From positions 13,825-77,824 of IMG/VR virus record IMGVR_UViG_3300021437_000013: 64,000 nt of DNA, one strand, 5' to 3'. Every line of letters begins with the position of its first letter. Position 1 is the stretch's first letter. Shown piece by piece: positions 182 to 15,064 of the stretch. This DNA is from a virus. A model generated the notes under the pieces. It was not told where the DNA came from and ran no database searches. It was given only the letters and a program-made list of their open reading frames with translations. The position numbers and the translations under genes are program-made.

Positions 182-905
182 GAAGGAATGATAGTAAGCC
201 ATAAAGATGAGGGGCGATAATACATCTCTTCTAAAGTTAATAGCTCGTAGGTCTGAGATAATGGAAACAAAGGGTAGGACTGAAATGAGTGTGTCCAGAG
301 AGTAAGATGAATAAACTTACCACAGGCATTAAAGGAAGCAATAGCTTCACTGCTTATAACAACCAAGCTTAAGCAGAAGGATATAGAAAGTCTTATCCTT
401 ATTTAACTTTAGACGTTTCAACCTCGGTAAGTTGAATAGTTAATGGAGCATATATCTTACCCATTAACAATAAATAGATACTTCTTAGGAAGAACTATAT
501 CTAAAAGCGACACTGAGCAATACATTTACAATGTCTTAGGCAACTTGGTCATGAGACAAAAGGTTAAGTGAAAGTGTATGTGACTTAGCAGCTACATAAC
601 CAGTCCTCTCTTCTTACCTCTTAAGGTTATCTTAGTATAGCAACCTAACCAGTAGCATAACTGAGTAAAATCAAGGGGTTAGGGGTAGGGTAGGGGGTAA
701 ATAGGTAGCCTGTTGGGGACGTTTAACCGCTCATATTTACAAACTTAAAATTAAAATAGAAACATTACCAGAATAACCCTGACTTGGTAAGTGGTTAAAA
801 TACATCGTATAAAGCTATTAGAGGCTTATAGAGGGGTTAGAATGGTAATGGTAGGGGGTATATAGGGGGAAACCCTTAATCCTCTTAAAATGCCTATTAC
901 AGCAT
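182..905 (+). ncRNA. putative large structured ncRNA (~720 nt)
   Basis: No credible ORF. Many nested stems, several with G-U pairs that work only on +: 230-240/403-413, 350-356/370-376, 377-383/394-400, 417-422/431-436, 439-446/461-468, 603-608/715-720, 614-622/692-700, 644-650/677-683, 722-731/790-799, and a GAAA-capped hairpin ~845-900. Starts 6 nt after TAACAACTA. Confidence 0.6.
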
Positions 906-938
906 TAGGATACTTAGAAACAACCTTGTTCTTGTTAG

Positions 939-947
939 TAACAACTA
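939..947 (+). promoter_or_regulatory. TAACAACTA putative late promoter
   Basis: Exact motif, followed by GAGG RBS and ATG at 963. Confidence 0.7.
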
Positions 948-962
948 TCAGTAGAGGTTGAT

Positions 963-1637
963 ATGATTGATTTAAACATAATAGGTTCATGTGTGTATGC
1001 ATTAATTGATGATAATAATAAAGAGGTTATTGTTATTGGTACCAGTAATGGATATAAGGGATTAGTAGAAGAGATGTATTGTATATCTACTAAAGTTAAA
1101 TATGATGGGTTTACAGTTACTAACGTTGTAGCTTCACCATTACCAGAAGAATCCAGAATCAGATTACAAACAATAGATAAGCTTATTACTGAATACACAA
1201 ATAAACAGTATATAGTTAGAAACAGCACTAGAAAACGTAGTAGTATGACTTATAAGATTATCTGTAAAAGTATGAAACTTGGTGGGATGATAACCAGACA
1301 GAACATCTTCATAGTTATAGAGAAGAGTATTAAGTATAATGGTAAAGTCCGTGGAGTATTTGAGTCTAACGAAGAGGCTAACAACTTCATTGACTACTTA
1401 AAGAGTATGAATGAGGATATGTTACGGCCACTATCTGCATGTAATGCACTTACTAAAGCTTGGACATTAGAAGAAGAAAGACAGAAATCAGAGTATTTAA
1501 TACCCGGTAAGAAGACTGTGACAGTAAGTATGGATGGTCACGGGAAAGAGGCTAGAAGGATATCTTATCCTAGAGCTGTAATACTACATAACATTAAGCA
1601 GATGTTAGCCGGGTTACCTACAATGCCACTTAACTAA
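963..1637 (+). CDS. hypothetical protein (N-terminal VY...VIG weakly GIY-YIG-like)
   Basis: 224-aa ORF with GAGG RBS and upstream motif; function not recognisable. Confidence 0.75.
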   Translation: MIDLNIIGSCVYALIDDNNKEVIVIGTSNGYKGLVEEMYCISTKVKYDGFTVTNVVASPLPEESRIRLQTIDKLITEYTNKQYIVRNSTRKRSSMTYKIICKSMKLGGMITRQNIFIVIEKSIKYNGKVRGVFESNEEANNFIDYLKSMNEDMLRPLSACNALTKAWTLEEERQKSEYLIPGKKTVTVSMDGHGKEARRISYPRAVILHNIKQMLAGLPTMPLN

Positions 1638-3682: not shown

Positions 3683-6228
3683 GCAAACCAACAGCTAAAC
3701 AATTAACCAGACAAGAGCTTATCCATGAAATGTGGAGAAGGGGAAACTTAGTATATAAGATGCATTCAGTACAAAGAGAGATGTACGAAACTTTAGAATC
3801 TGCAGCTCCCAATTCTGTATTAGTTTGGATGACGTCCAGGCAGCTCGGCAAATGCCTAGAAGAGAATACTTTGGTAGCTACTCCACAAGGTTCAGTAAAG
3901 ATAAAAGATATACAAGAAGGAAGCATTGTATATGGGTATGATGAGAAAGGTAAGATTACTCCTACTGAGGTTATAAAGGTTCATAATCAAGGTAAAAAAG
4001 AAGTAGTGGATTTGATGCACAGAGGGAGAGTAATCGCTACGGCCACAGACGACCATAAATGGTTAGCTTGGGATAGCTACAAGAATAAAGAAGTAGAAAT
4101 AACCGCCAAACAACTTACGGGATATCCTAGATATAAAATTAGAAGAGAGTATTTTGATTATGTTGGAGGTAGTATTCATGAACCGCACGCTTACACTCTC
4201 GGGGCTTTATTGGGTGACGGGTACGGAAAACATAATAAAAGTTCAATGACTCAATTATGTGTATCTTCAAGAGATGATAAAATTCCCGAGGCTATTTCTA
4301 GAGAATTAGGGTGTTTTTACTGGAAAGCAAAAGGTAATAACTTCTCATATATACTAAGTAACACTTTTAAGCCTATGACTAAAGGTAAAACTTATGATTT
4401 AATGACTATAAACTACTATAAAGAGTGGTGTTCTGGTAAAAAAGCACATGAGAAATTTTGTGATTATGAAACAATAAGAACTTGGTCTAGAGAATCTCAA
4501 GTTAGATTTATTGCCGGATTAATTGATACTGATGGTAGTATACATCTCTCAGGAAGAGATAAGACGGAGTTACGATTTTCTTTAGGTATGCAGGCAGAGA
4601 CTGTTATACAATGTGTAAGTAAGTTAATGTTAGATTTATGGCAAGCGGAGACTTGTTATTTATTGGATAATAGACCTAAATATAAAAATGGCCCAGTACA
4701 TACTATATATTTAAATAATAACTTTTTAGTAAAAAGAATACTAAAAGAACTGTCACCTCATATAGTTACGGAACATAAAAAATATAAAGAAGAGTATGAT
4801 AATTTTCCAGAATATAATCATATAAAAGACTATGTTGGTGTAATTGCTGGAAAAAGGTATGAAGTAAATACTTATGACTTAAGTATTGATAATAAAACCC
4901 ACCTATATTGTTTAGCTAATGGATTAATAACCCACAATAGTACAATGCTATGCTTAATCGCAATAATGGCTTGTATAAAGAAGCCTAATAGTATTGTAAA
5001 GATACTAACTGATACTAAGGTTCATGCTCAAATGATTCTTGAACCTAAATTCATAGAGGTTCTAGAAGACTGTCCAGAAGAACTAAAACCTACTTATAAT
5101 GCTTCTCGATATATGTACCACTTCCCTAATGGGAGTCAAATACAAATGGCTGGTACAGATGCAGGCTCCGCCGAGAGGTTGAGGGGTGGTAAGTCTGAGC
5201 TGGTTTTGGTTGATGAAGCTGCGTTTTGTTCAAAGCTTGAGTATAATATCCTATCAGTATTAGTACCAACTACCACCCATACTGGCGGTAAGATTGTATT
5301 AGCATCATCAGCACCAGAAGACCCAGACCATGATTTTATTAAGTTTATGGAAAGGGCAGAAATAGAAGGAACTTTAGTAAGTAAAACCGTATATGATAAC
5401 CCTCTACTTACTACAGAGAAAATTAAGACTATTATAAAGGGGTATGCGGGGGGTATTGATAATCCTAACTTTAGACGAGAGTATTTAAATATCATTGAGA
5501 AGAATGAGAAGACAACCGTATTCCCAGAGGTTAATGAAAATACAATAAAAGAGATTACTTCTAATATTCCTCCCATGCCTGCACATTATGATTGTTTTGT
5601 TGGTATGGACTTAGGATTCAAAGACTTAACGGGCATTGTATTTGCTCATTATGACTTTAGGAATAAGCTATTAGTATTTGATAAAGAGATAGTTAAGAAA
5701 GGGCCTGAGGTTAATCTTAAAGAGTTACCAGATGAAATATTAAAGGTTGAGAAAGAACTCTGGAGTAATAAGCTTACTAATGAAGTTAGAATCCCTACTA
5801 AACGAGTATCTGACATTAACCCACTTGTTACTCAAGAGATTGCCAGAAATAGTAATTATCAAGTCATGTTCTACAATGCAGACAAGGCACAGCGTATGAC
5901 TGCTTTAAATGCCTTTAGAGCCGCTTTTCAATCGGGGCAGATAAAGATTAACCCCCAAGGTTGTCCAGTGCTTATACGGCATTTAAACAATGCTAAATGG
6001 AAGTCTTTGGATGACAAGAGCGACTTTGCTAGAAGTTCAGATGATTCACATTATGACTTAGCAATGGCTGCCTTATACTTATTCAGGGCCGTTAATTTTG
6101 ATAAGAATCCTTATCCGATTGGTAGTCGTGACCCTAACACTAATCACTATGCTGATTGGCATAGTAAGAATCAATCCTCAAACGTAAACAAATACAAAGC
6201 TCTATTAGGAATCAAAAAAAAGAAGTAG
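3679..6228 (+). CDS. terL: terminase large subunit, intein-containing
   Basis: Walker A SRQLGK/ST split by intein, Walker B LVLVDEAAF, motif III LASS, RNase H-type nuclease VGMDLG...HYD. Confidence 0.93.
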   Translation: MSKPTAKQLTRQELIHEMWRRGNLVYKMHSVQREMYETLESAAPNSVLVWMTSRQLGKCLEENTLVATPQGSVKIKDIQEGSIVYGYDEKGKITPTEVIKVHNQGKKEVVDLMHRGRVIATATDDHKWLAWDSYKNKEVEITAKQLTGYPRYKIRREYFDYVGGSIHEPHAYTLGALLGDGYGKHNKSSMTQLCVSSRDDKIPEAISRELGCFYWKAKGNNFSYILSNTFKPMTKGKTYDLMTINYYKEWCSGKKAHEKFCDYETIRTWSRESQVRFIAGLIDTDGSIHLSGRDKTELRFSLGMQAETVIQCVSKLMLDLWQAETCYLLDNRPKYKNGPVHTIYLNNNFLVKRILKELSPHIVTEHKKYKEEYDNFPEYNHIKDYVGVIAGKRYEVNTYDLSIDNKTHLYCLANGLITHNSTMLCLIAIMACIKKPNSIVKILTDTKVHAQMILEPKFIEVLEDCPEELKPTYNASRYMYHFPNGSQIQMAGTDAGSAERLRGGKSELVLVDEAAFCSKLEYNILSVLVPTTTHTGGKIVLASSAPEDPDHDFIKFMERAEIEGTLVSKTVYDNPLLTTEKIKTIIKGYAGGIDNPNFRREYLNIIEKNEKTTVFPEVNENTIKEITSNIPPMPAHYDCFVGMDLGFKDLTGIVFAHYDFRNKLLVFDKEIVKKGPEVNLKELPDEILKVEKELWSNKLTNEVRIPTKRVSDINPLVTQEIARNSNYQVMFYNADKAQRMTALNAFRAAFQSGQIKINPQGCPVLIRHLNNAKWKSLDDKSDFARSSDDSHYDLAMAALYLFRAVNFDKNPYPIGSRDPNTNHYADWHSKNQSSNVNKYKALLGIKKKK
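3853..4938 (+). mobile_element. intein with LAGLIDADG homing endonuclease (362 aa)
   Basis: N-terminal CLEENTLV, C-terminal ANGLITHN followed by Ser; LGALLGDG and FIAGLIDTDG blocks. Confidence 0.93.
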
Positions 6229-6251
6229 TTTCTAATGTTTTCTCGTCATCT

Positions 6252-6260
6252 TAACAACTA
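6252..6260 (+). promoter_or_regulatory. TAACAACTA putative late promoter
   Basis: Exact motif in the terL-protease gap. Confidence 0.72.
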
Positions 6261-6276
6261 ATGGTATGGAGAACAT

Positions 6277-7026
6277 ATGATAAAGAAAACAACCAAGATT
6301 CTAGCTGTATCAGTTGCATCAGCTTTACTAATTGCTGCTGCAGGGGTTCAGTTCTCTGACTTCCATAAGAAATTTATAAGAAACAAGACTGCACCAAACA
6401 CAGTTATGGTACTTAACCTTGAACAGAACTCTGGTGGTACTGGATTCTATCTTAAAGTTCCATCTGGCCGTTCAGTTATTATAACTAATCGTCACGTTTG
6501 TGAATTAGAGAAAGATGGTAATATCTTGATTAAAGAAGAGGGCAGTCGCCTTACAGCTATCCATAGAGTAATCACTATTAGTAAGAATCATGACTTATGT
6601 GTCATTGATGCAAACGGAAAAGATAAGGGATTATCATTAGCTTCTGACATTAGTGTTGGTGATTCAGTATATGTTGTAGGTCATCCTAACTTACGACCGT
6701 TAATTATTACAGAAGGTGATTTAATTGATAAGTCAACTCCAAGTGCAGTTATCCATCACATGATGAAGCCAGAAGATGCACCAGAAACTTGTAATGGGAA
6801 GATAAAAGAAATAGAGCCATTACCGGGTTTTAAGATTCCTGTTTGTGTTCAATATGATATCAGTTATTATATCTCTGCTATTTCATATGGTGGTAACTCT
6901 GGTTCACCAGTAGTTAATAAATATGGTAATGTTATTGGTGTTTTATTTGCAGGTAATCAAAATGTAATTAACGACACTATGATTGTAAGATTAGAAGATT
7001 TAAGAGAATTTATCAAGGATTTATAA
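6277..7026 (+). CDS. trypsin-like (S1/Trypsin_2) serine protease with N-terminal signal or anchor
   Basis: GTGF, TNRHVC (His), HDLC (Asp), GGNSGSP (Ser) catalytic motifs. Confidence 0.9.
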   Translation: MIKKTTKILAVSVASALLIAAAGVQFSDFHKKFIRNKTAPNTVMVLNLEQNSGGTGFYLKVPSGRSVIITNRHVCELEKDGNILIKEEGSRLTAIHRVITISKNHDLCVIDANGKDKGLSLASDISVGDSVYVVGHPNLRPLIITEGDLIDKSTPSAVIHHMMKPEDAPETCNGKIKEIEPLPGFKIPVCVQYDISYYISAISYGGNSGSPVVNKYGNVIGVLFAGNQNVINDTMIVRLEDLREFIKDL

Positions 7027-10831: not shown

Positions 10832-13800
10832 ATGTCAGATTTAAAATTAGTTAAGCTATTAAATCCAGCGGTAGTTGTAAACTCTAACGTTAAACCAACC
10901 GGTGCTTATTCTGCCATAGTAAATTATGGTATTGGTGATTCAGTAAGTTATACTAACGGTAATTCTTATATTTGTATTTCCCCAATCTCTGGGGTAGTAC
11001 CAACAAACACAACCTATTGGCAGTTATTAGCTCAACAAGGGGCTACGGGTGCAACTGGTGCTACGGGAGCCACAGGCGCAACTGGTTCTACTGGCGCAAC
11101 TGGTTCAGCTGCTACTATCGCAGTAGGTACAACAACTACAGGTTCACCGGGTACTTCTGCAAGTGTAACTAACTCAGGTTCTTCAAGTGCCGCTACTTTC
11201 AATTTTACCATCCCTAGGGGCGATGTTGGGGCAACGGGAGCAGCCGGAGCGGCCGCCACAGTAGCAGTGGGAACAACAACCACGGGAGCAGCTGGAACAA
11301 GTGCATCAGTTACCAATTCTGGTTCATCTTCCGCAGCTACATTTAACTTTACAATCCCAAGAGGTGACACTGGAGCAACGGGAGCTACTGGAGCAACAGG
11401 AGCAACAGGAACCGCAGCAACAATTGCAGTAGGAACAGTAACAACTGGTGCAGCAGGTTCAAGTGCTAGTATAACTAACTCAGGTTCATCATCAGCGGCA
11501 ACATTTAACTTTACGATTCCTCGTGGTGACCCCGGTTCAAACACTCCAACGGATGCAGTATTTGCCGTTTTAGATGTTACTGACAATACAAAACAAGTAA
11601 AATTTGATGTAGCTGGAACTACAGGAACAACAACTACCATCTTAAGTTCACAAACTACAAATAAAACTATCACTTTACCTGATGCCACTGACACATTAGT
11701 CGGTAAAGCTACAACAGATACATTAACCAATAAAACTTTAACTTCACCAGTTATAAACTCTCCAACTGGAATAACTAAATCCGATGTTGGTCTTAGTAAT
11801 GTTGACAATACTTCTGACGCTACAAAGAACAGTGCTACGGCCACACTCACTAATAAGACTTTAACCTCTCCAATCATAAGTACAATCAGTAACACGGGCA
11901 CTTTAACGCTCCCAACAAGTACGGATACGCTCGTCGGACGTGCAACTACTGATACACTGACAAACAAAACCCTTACTTCTCCTGTAATTAATTCACCTAC
12001 GGGTATTACAAAATCCGACGTAGGACTTTCAAATGTAGACAACACCAGTGACGCAACAAAGAACGCTACAACTGCTACGTTTACAAACAAATCTCTATCC
12101 GATTCTACTACGGCAATCGTTGATGTTACTGATGCAACAAAACAAATCAAGTTTGATGCAGCAGGTACTACCGCAACAGCTACAACTATCCTTTCGTCTC
12201 AAACAGTTAATAGAACTATTACCCTCCCAGATGCTACAGATACACTTGTGGGTAAAGCAACTACGGATACATTAACTAACAAGACTCTAACAAGTCCAGT
12301 AATCAATACTCCAACTGGTATTACTAAGTCAGACGTGGGATTATCTAACGTCGACAACACGTCAGATGCGACAAAGAATGCAGCAACTGCAACATTAACT
12401 AACAAAACACTTGATACAGCAACAAACACAATCACTGGATTAGCCAATACAAACATTAGTACATCTGCCGCTATAGCTCACTCTAAAATGGCAGCATTAA
12501 CCGCTTCAAAAGTGGCAGTTACTGACGCATCAGGCTTTATTACTACAGCTACACCATCAACAACTGAAATAAATTATGTAGCAGGTGTTACAAGTGCAAT
12601 CCAAACACAAATAGATACTAAGGCTCCAATAGCTTCACCAACATTCACAGGTGTTCCAGCAGCTCCAACGGCTACCGCAGGAACAAATACAACACAAATT
12701 GCAACAACGGCATTTGTTACTTCCGCAGTTGCAGGGGCTACAGCTGGAGTTTCATCCTTTAATACAAGAACGGGCGCAGTAACATCGGCTAACGGTGATT
12801 ACACGGCTACACAAATCACAAATACCCCATCAGGTAACATAACATCAACTACGGTTCAAGCGGCAATCAATGAAGCTCAGACGCACATTGATACTCACGT
12901 TGCAGGTACAGCAGTACATGGGGCAACTGGTGCGGTAATGGGTACAACTAATACCCAAACTGTAACAAATAAGACATTCTTAGATACAACTACTATCATT
13001 GCAGATGTAACAGATAATACAAAACAGATTAAATTTGATGCTGCTGGTACTACTGCAACAAGTACAACAATATTATCATCTCAAACTACAAATAAAACTT
13101 TAACTTTACCAGATATTACGGATACTTTAGTTACAAAAACAAGTACGGATACATTAACTAATAAGACGTTGACCACTCCCATCATTTCTTCTATCTCAAA
13201 CACAGGTACATTGACTTTACCAACGTCAACTGATACATTAATAGGTAGGGCAACTACTGATATACTTACTAATAAATCATTAAGTGATACAACTACCGCA
13301 ATAGTGGATGTTACTGATAACACTAAGCAGATTAAATTTGATGCCGCAGGTACAACGGCAACATCAACTACAATCACGGGCTCTCAAACGGCTAATAGAG
13401 TGCTTACATTACCAGATGCAACTGATACATTGGTTGGTAAAGCTACAACGGATACATTAACAAACAAAACCCTTACTTCTCCAGTTATTTCAACTATAGT
13501 TAATACGGGAACTTTAACTTTACCTACAATTACGGATACTTTAGTAGGTAGAACCACTACAGACACGTTAACTAATAAAACATTAACTTCACCAGTCATT
13601 AGTACAATAGTAAATACTGGTACTTTGACACTTCCTACAGCTACAACTACACTAGTTGGTACTACAACTACAGATACACTAACAAATAAAACACTTACGT
13701 CACCAGTAATATCGACAATTGTAAATACTGGTACGCTTACATTACCTACGTCAACAGATACATTAGTAGGTCGTGCTACAACTGATACATTAACGAATAA

Positions 13801-15064
13801 AACTTTAACATCTCCCGTTATTGGAACAATAGTAAACACTGGTACATTAACTTTACCAACGTCAACCGATACACTTGTTGGCCGTGCAACTACTGATACA
13901 CTTACTAACAAGTCTTTATCTGATACTACTACTTCTATAGTAAACGTAACAGATGCTACTAAGAAAATCTTATTCAGTTCGGTTGGTACTACTGCAACTA
14001 CAACAACAATTACAGCTTCACAAACAGCAAACAGAGTTATAACGCTCCCAGATGCCACTACAACGCTTGATGGTATCAATAACGTAGCTACTCTTACTAA
14101 CAAAACTCTTACTGCTCCCGTTATAGCTACAATTGTAAACACAGGTACTTTGACATTACCAACTATTACAGATACATTAGTCGGAAGAACAACAACCGAC
14201 ACACTTACAAACAAAACTTTAACATCACCAGTAATAAGTACCATTGTCAATACGGGAACTTTAACCCTCCCAACATCTACTGATACGTTAATTGGTAGAG
14301 CTACAACGGATACATTAACAAATAAGTCATTTTCAGATACAACTACTGCGGTAGTAGATGTAACTGATCCAACTAAGAAGATATTATTCGATGCTGCAGG
14401 TACTACGGGAACCACTACAACGCTACAAGCGGCTCAAACTGCTAACAGAGTCGTAACCTACCCAGATGCAACGGATACAATCGTAGCAAGAGCCACTACA
14501 GATACGTTAACTAATAAAACTATTTCAGGATTGTCAAATACAATCAATAATATTTCATTAACTACATCCGTTACAGGTGCATTACCTATAGCGAATGGTG
14601 GTACTGGACAAACTACAGCAGCAAATGCCTTTTCTGCACTATCTCCAACTACAAACCCGGGGGATATGATTTATGAAGGTGCCGTTGGTGTTGGTGTTAT
14701 AGCATTACCAATAGGTACTACTGGACAAGTCTTAACTGTAGCAGGTGGTTTTCCAACTTGGGCAACTGCAACTGGTGGCGGCGGTACTGGCACAGCGGTA
14801 TACAAAGTAATCCAATCTGTAGATTTTGGAGCTAATGACAATGATTATGTAACGGCCACAATATCCAATGCTAATGTATTATCCACTCATACCTTTTCGT
14901 TTAGTGTTGAACGTGATCCTTTAGACGGGGATTATGAGGACGCAATACTTGAAACTATCCACGTTTCAAAGGGAGCAGTAGTAAATAATACAAGTTTTGA
15001 TATCCATGTTCATGCACCAGAGATGACTTGGGGTAGATATAATATTCATTGCACGTTTCTATAA
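10832..15064 (+). CDS. long fibre protein 1 (collagen-like and TDTLTNKTLT repeats)
   Basis: N-terminal CBM5/12-like Y..GD.V.Y...SY.C...YW motif, GAT triplet repeats, many Thr-rich shaft repeats. Confidence 0.85.
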   Translation: MSDLKLVKLLNPAVVVNSNVKPTGAYSAIVNYGIGDSVSYTNGNSYICISPISGVVPTNTTYWQLLAQQGATGATGATGATGATGSTGATGSAATIAVGTTTTGSPGTSASVTNSGSSSAATFNFTIPRGDVGATGAAGAAATVAVGTTTTGAAGTSASVTNSGSSSAATFNFTIPRGDTGATGATGATGATGTAATIAVGTVTTGAAGSSASITNSGSSSAATFNFTIPRGDPGSNTPTDAVFAVLDVTDNTKQVKFDVAGTTGTTTTILSSQTTNKTITLPDATDTLVGKATTDTLTNKTLTSPVINSPTGITKSDVGLSNVDNTSDATKNSATATLTNKTLTSPIISTISNTGTLTLPTSTDTLVGRATTDTLTNKTLTSPVINSPTGITKSDVGLSNVDNTSDATKNATTATFTNKSLSDSTTAIVDVTDATKQIKFDAAGTTATATTILSSQTVNRTITLPDATDTLVGKATTDTLTNKTLTSPVINTPTGITKSDVGLSNVDNTSDATKNAATATLTNKTLDTATNTITGLANTNISTSAAIAHSKMAALTASKVAVTDASGFITTATPSTTEINYVAGVTSAIQTQIDTKAPIASPTFTGVPAAPTATAGTNTTQIATTAFVTSAVAGATAGVSSFNTRTGAVTSANGDYTATQITNTPSGNITSTTVQAAINEAQTHIDTHVAGTAVHGATGAVMGTTNTQTVTNKTFLDTTTIIADVTDNTKQIKFDAAGTTATSTTILSSQTTNKTLTLPDITDTLVTKTSTDTLTNKTLTTPIISSISNTGTLTLPTSTDTLIGRATTDILTNKSLSDTTTAIVDVTDNTKQIKFDAAGTTATSTTITGSQTANRVLTLPDATDTLVGKATTDTLTNKTLTSPVISTIVNTGTLTLPTITDTLVGRTTTDTLTNKTLTSPVISTIVNTGTLTLPTATTTLVGTTTTDTLTNKTLTSPVISTIVNTGTLTLPTSTDTLVGRATTDTLTNKTLTSPVIGTIVNTGTLTLPTSTDTLVGRATTDTLTNKSLSDTTTSIVNVTDATKKILFSSVGTTATTTTITASQTANRVITLPDATTTLDGINNVATLTNKTLTAPVIATIVNTGTLTLPTITDTLVGRTTTDTLTNKTLTSPVISTIVNTGTLTLPTSTDTLIGRATTDTLTNKSFSDTTTAVVDVTDPTKKILFDAAGTTGTTTTLQAAQTANRVVTYPDATDTIVARATTDTLTNKTISGLSNTINNISLTTSVTGALPIANGGTGQTTAANAFSALSPTTNPGDMIYEGAVGVGVIALPIGTTGQVLTVAGGFPTWATATGGGGTGTAVYKVIQSVDFGANDNDYVTATISNANVLSTHTFSFSVERDPLDGDYEDAILETIHVSKGAVVNNTSFDIHVHAPEMTWGRYNIHCTFL

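Follow-up and report, generated by a model that had tools for sequence, protein, structure and literature searches.

With about even confidence, we read the gene-free stretch at positions 178–962 as a composite non-coding control region with which the late (+) gene block of a phage begins, rather than as one large RNA gene. The 3ʹ third of this region (about 675–947) would work as DNA: its module would be a promoter or operator specific to the phage, equipped with a G-rich element upstream, and would control the first late gene. The 5ʹ part (about 230–505) is specific to the lineage, with seven short, perfect hairpins clustered inside a closing helix of 11 bp. A late transcript started at 166–177 would carry these hairpins as a leader that runs on into the module and the gene, and such a leader may serve RNA stability, processing or regulation. 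Unless they are given as record coordinates (G000), positions are those of the window, the whole 64,000-nt stretch of DNA that was analysed, and the features discussed below are collected in Table 1.

Table 1. Features in and around the gene-free stretch (window positions)
Feature	Position	Strand	Remark
201-aa orphan gene, 3ʹ end	1–177 (start at G000 13396)	+	Stop codon inside late motif copy 1
Late motif copy 1, CTTAACAACTAA	166–177 (9-mer core 168–176)	+	Full 12-mer consensus
Hairpin cluster	230–505		11-bp closing helix 230–240/403–413 around hairpins 302–320, 335–348, 350–376 and 377–400; then 417–436, 439–468 and 475–503
Pyrimidine-rich tract	603–650	+	Can pair with G tract 1; "nested domain" of the earlier note
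G tract 1	675–722	+	675–697 is the sole canonical G-quadruplex motif (predicted) in the 77.8-kb genome
ATAGAAACA box 1	756–764	+	At -207 from the downstream gene start
G tract 2	833–869	+	Tandem copy of G tract 1
TAGAAACA box 2	915–922	+	45 nt past G tract 2
Late motif copy 2, TAACAACTA	939–947	+	Followed by GAGG (954–957) and ATG (963)
224-aa gene, clade-conserved family	963–1637	+	N-terminal domain with predicted GIY-YIG fold

Setting of the gene-free stretch and its late-gene motif

The window comprises bases 13825–77824 of a 77.8-kb IMG/VR virus record with a completeness estimate of 91%. This record encodes a P22/SU10-like portal and capsid protein, a T4-type large terminase, a family B DNA polymerase (PolB), a DnaB-like helicase and methylases. 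Its source is an uncultured ~78-kb podophage, for which no cultured relative was found, the terminase being at most ~27% identical to that of any phage record. A terminase search returned hundreds of relatives, of which the closer ones P0002–P0010 (TerL identities of 60–79%) are known as proteins only; the related loci compared here are 77 from IMG/VR, taken with as much as 10 kb of flanking sequence and all with a TerL identity of 56% or less. The large terminase gene of the phage (3679–6228, +) encodes 849 aa, as against 480–490 aa in most relatives. Its insertion (about residues 57–424) gave a weak LAGLIDADG match, and its tblastn matches were to helicase, RNA-ligase and terminase genes in unrelated phages, a pattern expected of an intein; it was also present in one relative, P0005 (841 aa).

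Genes of the record lie on the - strand up to G000 12858 and on the + strand from G000 13396 onward, which places the stretch ~0.6 kb inside the late (+) block, just past the early/late divergence. The stretch spans 785 bases, and the rest of the genome is tightly packed. No ORF longer than 89 aa was found in it in any frame, and none with a plausible ribosome-binding site, confirming the earlier note's description of an ORF-free stretch in a gene-dense phage. Two small ORFs (207–305 and 443–571) were dropped, as both are without a ribosome-binding site. Right behind the first late motif, an A is followed by ATG TGA (177–183), that is, a start codon with an immediate stop, again without a ribosome-binding site. 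The 201-aa orphan in front of the stretch matched no PHROG family and had no homolog in the 77 related loci. No tRNA or tmRNA was detected in the 64 kb with ARAGORN, and no terminator was predicted in positions 1–2600.

Repeats were also observed around the early/late divergence. The divergent intergenic region (G000 12877–13178) holds a 63-nt direct repeat with 75% identity (G000 12877–12939 and 13118–13178, window -947 to -646) and three TTTGTAACA iterons, and these repeats are a better origin or operator candidate than the 178–962 stretch. A 50-nt direct repeat with 86% identity (E = 6e-10), located at G000 12766–12815 (window -1058 to -1009) and at 2377–2426, joins two ORF-poor elements that flank the island, with a folding window at -1175 of z -3.4 on the - strand.

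The 9-mer TAACAACTA occurs in 13 exact copies versus 1.97 expected; 12 of these are on the + strand, and most of the + copies precede a start codon by no more than about 100 nt. One-mismatch variants were present at chance level only, and the core TTAACAACT was found again in many related phage loci. By this enrichment, position and recurrence, the 9-mer acts as a late-gene signal, which upholds both the late-promoter motif recognized in the earlier note and its observation that two copies bracket the stretch. The first copy overlaps the stop codon of the orphan gene, and copies elsewhere likewise overlap stop codons. Because this copy has the full 12-mer consensus, + strand transcription from 166–177 into the gap is plausible, and since no terminator is predicted in this part of the window, such a transcript would run on into the downstream gene.

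The literature held nothing relevant on the 9-mer. PF00940, the profile used for single-subunit RNA polymerases, matched neither the record nor the control genomes, and no polymerase or sigma factor for the late motif was found among the genome's genes; large proteins without a Pfam family remain in the record. A further repeated sequence, TAATGTATC, with 13 copies on the - strand (11725–14317), was considered as a second promoter class and rejected, as the copies are antisense of protein repeats inside the ORF at 10832–15064; 10 of them are antisense to the peptide repeat of this 1410-aa virion or tail-fibre-like ORF.

The G-run and box module and the downstream gene

The 3ʹ part of the stretch is marked by its G-runs. 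Under the canonical criterion of four runs of at least 3 G with loops of 1–7 nt, the predicted G-quadruplex motif at 675–697 is unique on either strand of the genome, and such a motif arose in 12 of 2000 shuffles of the region. Of the 74 runs of at least 4 G that the + strand of the genome contains, seven fall in 675–869. The tract is also repeated in tandem, with 83% identity over 35 nt (674–705 and 832–866) and 94% over 17 nt (689–705 and 850–866), and the module (about 675–947) accordingly exists in two copies, the first composed of 675–700 and box 1, the second of G tract 2 and box 2.

The order of the module, that is, a G-run, ~40–60 nt, the ATAGAAACA box (ATAGAAAC-type), the late 9-mer (TAACAACT motif) and the start of the gene with the GIY-YIG fold, is kept in at least nine related genomes, and the spacing in most of them. 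The distance from G-run to box was 57–63 nt in seven relatives, and relative to the start codon the box lies between -166 and -208 in the phage itself and in L002, L015, L016, L028, L040 and L054. Two arrangements could be seen within this range. The box of the relatives, which is (AC)TATAGAAAC-like, lies at -166 to -171 in six relatives; in L015, L016, L028, L040 and L054 it is found there, with G-runs at -242 to -213. L002 carries a box identical to box 1 of the window, at -208, and its G-run is at -276; in the phage itself the box is at -207 and the G-runs are at -288 to -266, a distance of G tract 1 to the downstream gene that relatives share. Across the clade, canonical G-quadruplex motifs number 9 in 1.1 Mb counting both strands, and 5 of them are on the + strand, 240–1014 nt upstream of the GIY-YIG-fold gene. 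Among the 20 loci that carry this gene, 9 have their strongest G-run window, taken over the full locus, on the + strand at 240–530 nt upstream of the gene. As the module keeps its order, and mostly its spacing, across the clade, it points to regulatory DNA. By their position, the motif, the box and the G-run are candidate promoter elements.

In one subclade (L008, L025 and L033), the strongest such run is a C-run on the + strand at about -200, so the orientation of the G-run is not fixed. Should this C-run be an inverted form of the G-run element, a role at the level of DNA is again suggested; the variable orientation fits such a role but complicates a simple upstream-element model.

The conserved module coincides with structures that the earlier note had taken as RNA. 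Its RNA domains, pseudoknot and GAAA hairpin at 600–905 turned out to be the two DNA-module copies: G tract 1 is part of the nested domain, and G tract 2 contains the pseudoknot arm 833–839 together with the 5ʹ side of the GAAA hairpin. When the non-coding DNA upstream of the gene was compared among five relatives, linear promoter-like blocks were conserved and the consensus structure reached -2.3 kcal/mol, indicating essentially no conserved RNA structure, and a pairing partner for the G tract was absent from the relatives' aligned upstream sequence.

Several further observations were made near the homologous gene in relatives. Position 1 of L021 and of L022, two near-complete contigs (75 and 87 kb) from different samples, falls in a G-rich tract upstream of this gene, where both contigs end, which could stem from a dropout in assembly or sequencing at G-runs or from a physical feature. 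These ends raised the idea that the genome has its terminus or packaging site at the G tract, which was not supported, because two closely related terminal-repeat records break at quite different places and so look circular. Downstream of the gene in L016 there is a large palindrome of TAGATGTAC iterons (6222–6705, z about -7 to -10 on the - strand), which looks like a protein-binding array or an origin, and in L054 iterons lie upstream of the gene. With these arrays, the neighborhood is a hot spot for regulatory DNA in general.

The family of the 224-aa gene was found in 19 related loci with jackhmmer. Past the divergent early/late junction, most relatives have it as their first late gene or with one or two short ORFs ahead of it, and in most it is flanked by 250–1200 nt of non-coding DNA. 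The structure model of the 224-aa protein (mean pLDDT 72.9) gave no match with Foldseek; it matched the I-TevI catalytic domain with a Z of 9.2 (rmsd 2.3 Å over 78 residues) and the UvrC N-domain with a Z of 8.1. The catalytic Tyr, Arg and Glu of GIY-YIG nucleases are not conserved in the 19-sequence family alignment, in which the only invariant or near-invariant columns, G131, F133, A139 and T164, are all in the C-terminal domain. By its model, the protein is of a GIY-YIG fold in degenerate form, and it may be the reader of the adjoining G-run module.

Hairpin cluster, folding statistics and alternative readings

A first estimate with 20 shuffles had given z -3.83 (+) and -1.83 (-) for 178–962, but with 70 shuffles the values for 182–938 were -2.19 (+) and -0.89 (-), one shuffle beating the native + strand. 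Six 757-nt coding controls from the same genome, folded on the sense strand, gave z values of -2.74, -1.07, +0.81, -1.87, -2.46 and -1.62, a range that includes -2.19, indicating that the stretch folds no better than ordinary mRNA. For the segment 511–800 the z was -0.41, a chance value, and 63 of 200 shuffles folded equally well. The segment 700–962 showed a modest, strand-specific effect, with z -2.37 (+) and +0.37 (-) over 200 shuffles, and the better folding of the + strand may reflect some RNA structure there.

When the stretch was scanned in 150-nt windows, the sole outlier was at about 250–550, with z -3.5 and -4.6 on the + strand and -5.7 on the - strand. In the genome-wide background of 180 windows (mean -0.26, sd 1.13), two windows were below -3.5 and none was below -4.5. 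The hairpin cluster is thereby a real, unexplained local feature; since its stems are perfect Watson–Crick pairs, it carries no strand signal, and 222–510 gave z -2.80 (+) and -2.50 (-) with 200 shuffles.

The helices of the earlier note were all complementary at the coordinates given there, among them 230–240/403–413 (a perfect 11-mer), 603–608/715–720, 614–622/692–700, 644–650/677–683, 722–731/790–799 and 774–780/833–839, and five of the listed helices were confirmed in a second check. Its hairpins between 302 and 503 were likewise present, the second of them fitting best as 335–339/344–348. The description of the stretch as tiled with stems held beyond chance at 250–505 only, the whole region and 511–800 being ordinary, and the proposed G-U asymmetry between the strands held for the G-rich 3ʹ part but not for the hairpin cluster, which folds equally on both.

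Perfect inverted repeats of 12–15 nt were equally frequent in shuffled and real genomes, at about one 15-mer per shuffled genome, so the shorter 11-bp helix is not significant when taken alone. Two such repeats, 219–233/1066–1080 (15 nt) and 400–412/1090–1102 (13 nt), connect the hairpin domain to a 37-nt stretch in the downstream gene. Both are at chance genome-wide, and their shared 37-nt target is a coincidence without explanation; an invertible segment or a long-range RNA pairing through them was dropped given the frequency of 15-mers in shuffled genomes.

The search for known RNA families was negative. Rfam cmscan of the whole window at the gathering score returned no match, bases 1–1200 at E values up to 10 returned four noise hits, none of them GOLLD or ROOL, and six related loci had no match. 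Covariance models of group I and group II introns, phi29 pRNA and 6S RNA found nothing in the window. Within the reach of covariance models, this excludes GOLLD, ROOL, group I/II introns and pRNA and leaves the earlier note's assignment to GOLLD/ROOL or an intron class without a match.

Homologs of the stretch itself were equally absent from the collections searched. Neither blastn of the region against 50,697 phage records nor a scan of viral contigs with the two flanking proteins returned anything, and blastn and nhmmer of 178–962 against the 77 related loci detected no DNA similarity. In the reverse direction, an nhmmer profile of the relatives' upstream region found nothing in the phage's own genome. 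A covariance model of 226–417, run over 41 related loci plus the window, found no homolog, the best foreign match being a partial one of 18 bits inside coding DNA. Among the upstream non-coding regions of eight relatives, local folding was mostly ordinary, with isolated windows at z of about -3 to -4, and most other cases in relatives of a motif followed by a long gap were open frames. One analogous case was found. In L073 (3996–4470), a full motif copy closes the homologous gene, ~467 nt without ORFs come next, and then another motif copy; this spacer (4005–4462), which is not similar in sequence to the window, folds with z -4.06 (+) and -3.36 (-).

Given this motif-bracketed, structured spacer in L073, there may be a genuine late non-coding RNA. 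Such an RNA would be smaller, ~330–450 nt (182 to ~510–650), started from the motif at 166–177 and acting as a decoy, regulator or scaffold, with the G-rich module a separate element; we regard it as possible but unlikely. The full 12-mer stands right in front of the candidate, with no start codon and ribosome-binding site behind it, the hairpin cluster is an outlier in local folding, and the hairpin loops on the + strand are enriched in A (45% versus 38% for the segment). On the other hand, folding of the cluster is as good on the - strand as on the + strand, or better, the z of 222–510 is just -2.8, no terminator or defined 3ʹ end was found, no homolog was detected by blastn, nhmmer or covariance model, L073 included, and a sporadic distribution equally fits an accessory or decaying cassette. 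In a composite control region, the hairpin cluster would probably be transcribed late as the structured 5ʹ part of a long leader, as it is located directly behind the full late motif with no terminator predicted.

A bolder proposal joins both parts of the stretch. The G-run and the ATAGAAACA box would form a G-quadruplex-dependent switch, for promoter control or as an R-loop origin, at the early/late junction of this clade of ~80-kb podophages, and the motif-bracketed hairpin units (182 to ~600 here and 4005–4462 in L073) would represent a new, fast-evolving class of late non-coding RNA. We consider the two together rather unlikely.

Transcription-primed origins are known from ColE1 RNA II, mitochondrial CSB II and T4 R-loop origins, and a comparable origin here, for which we see a low probability, would have a promoter drive a G-rich transcript that stays on the C-rich template as a persistent R-loop or hybrid G-quadruplex and serves as primer for the family B polymerase. 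It would agree with the G-run following a promoter-like motif on the non-template (+) strand in most relatives, with its occurrence at one site per genome, with the iteron or palindrome arrays beside the same gene in L054 and L016, and with the phage's own PolB and DnaB-like helicase. G-quadruplexes are also reported to promote lytic replication at KSHV oriLyt (PMC10714766). However, a promoter of the late type would be a strange choice for driving an origin, the iteron-like repeats 800 nt upstream make a better candidate, the orientation flips in one subclade, and the fixed distance of the G-run to the box and the gene start suits a promoter better.

That the stretch is a non-functional spacer, a decayed gene cassette between two late promoters, is similarly improbable. 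Its 5ʹ part has no homolog in any relative searched, motif-bracketed units resemble cassettes and the global fold is ordinary; against this, genes elsewhere in the genome are tightly packed, the hairpin cluster ranks among the top ~1% of windows and the 3ʹ part is clearly conserved. No protein remnant was detected in the stretch with tblastn, and the reading as a pseudogene remnant was dropped on the same result.

The single ornate RNA of ~720 nt (182–905) proposed in the earlier note, a GOLLD/ROOL member or analogue with a role in packaging or assembly, is very improbable: its size class and phage context are like those of GOLLD and ROOL (PMC12286853), its first whole-region z was low and the G-U pairs of its 3ʹ part exist on the + strand only, but it has no Rfam match, its global z fell to within the coding background with more shuffles, its middle section (511–800) is at chance, its 3ʹ domains coincide with a duplicated DNA module conserved by sequence and spacing rather than by pairing, with no partner for the G tract in the aligned upstream sequence of relatives, and none of the findings pertains to a packaging role. 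Two of the outcomes that the note itself had named as unfavorable thus weaken it.

If the stretch is indeed a composite control region, a candidate large ornate RNA is mostly phage regulatory DNA, which would caution that G-rich tracts paired with pyrimidine tracts can mimic RNA domains when a sequence is read without other information. A phage clade with no cultured member has a strict late-gene 9-mer in common, as well as a unique element capable of forming a G-quadruplex, whose distance to a promoter-like box and to a degenerate GIY-YIG gene is fixed. This module would offer a testable handle on the late-expression switch or the start of replication in the clade.

Comparison with known systems

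GOLLD and ROOL RNAs often lie near tRNA genes in phage or prophage DNA. The stretch is like them in its length of several hundred nucleotides, its phage context and its many predicted stems within a gene-free region. It is unlike them in having no covariance match at E values up to 10, no tRNA neighbors in the 64 kb and a global fold no better than that of coding sequence, and in that one third of it is a conserved DNA module. Both GOLLD (RF01998) and ROOL (RF03087) are large ornate RNAs with cryo-EM structures (PMC12286853).

With structured 5ʹ leaders of phage and bacterial mRNAs, the stretch shares stem-loops between a promoter, here a putative one, and the first gene, with no terminator between. 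Unlike the usual leaders, it would be unusually long at ~760 nt, and the gene is directly preceded by a motif copy and a ribosome-binding site of its own.

The T4 late promoter is TATAAATA, and T7/SP6-type promoters have ACTATAG in their start-site region. The motif studied here is similar in being short, strict and directly upstream of late genes, at times 5–6 nt before the ATG. In relatives, TTAACAACT is followed after a few nucleotides by TATAGAAACA, or the sequence is TCAACTATAGAAAC, which can be likened to T4 late and T7/SP6-type promoters, and the relatives' (AC)TATAGAAAC box resembles the initiation region of the T7/SP6 type. Unlike in these promoters, a G-run lies ~60 nt upstream, an element without counterpart there.

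G-quadruplexes have been surveyed in herpesviruses (PMC5117502), and those at KSHV oriLyt are described in a further report (PMC10714766). Like the G-quadruplex and R-loop origins of ColE1 RNA II, CSB II and KSHV oriLyt, the module has a single cluster of G-runs on the non-template strand past a promoter-like motif, in an AT-rich genome. It differs from them in that its G-quadruplex is a sequence prediction and in its fixed spacing to a promoter-like box, a spacing that suggests transcriptional control rather than an origin.
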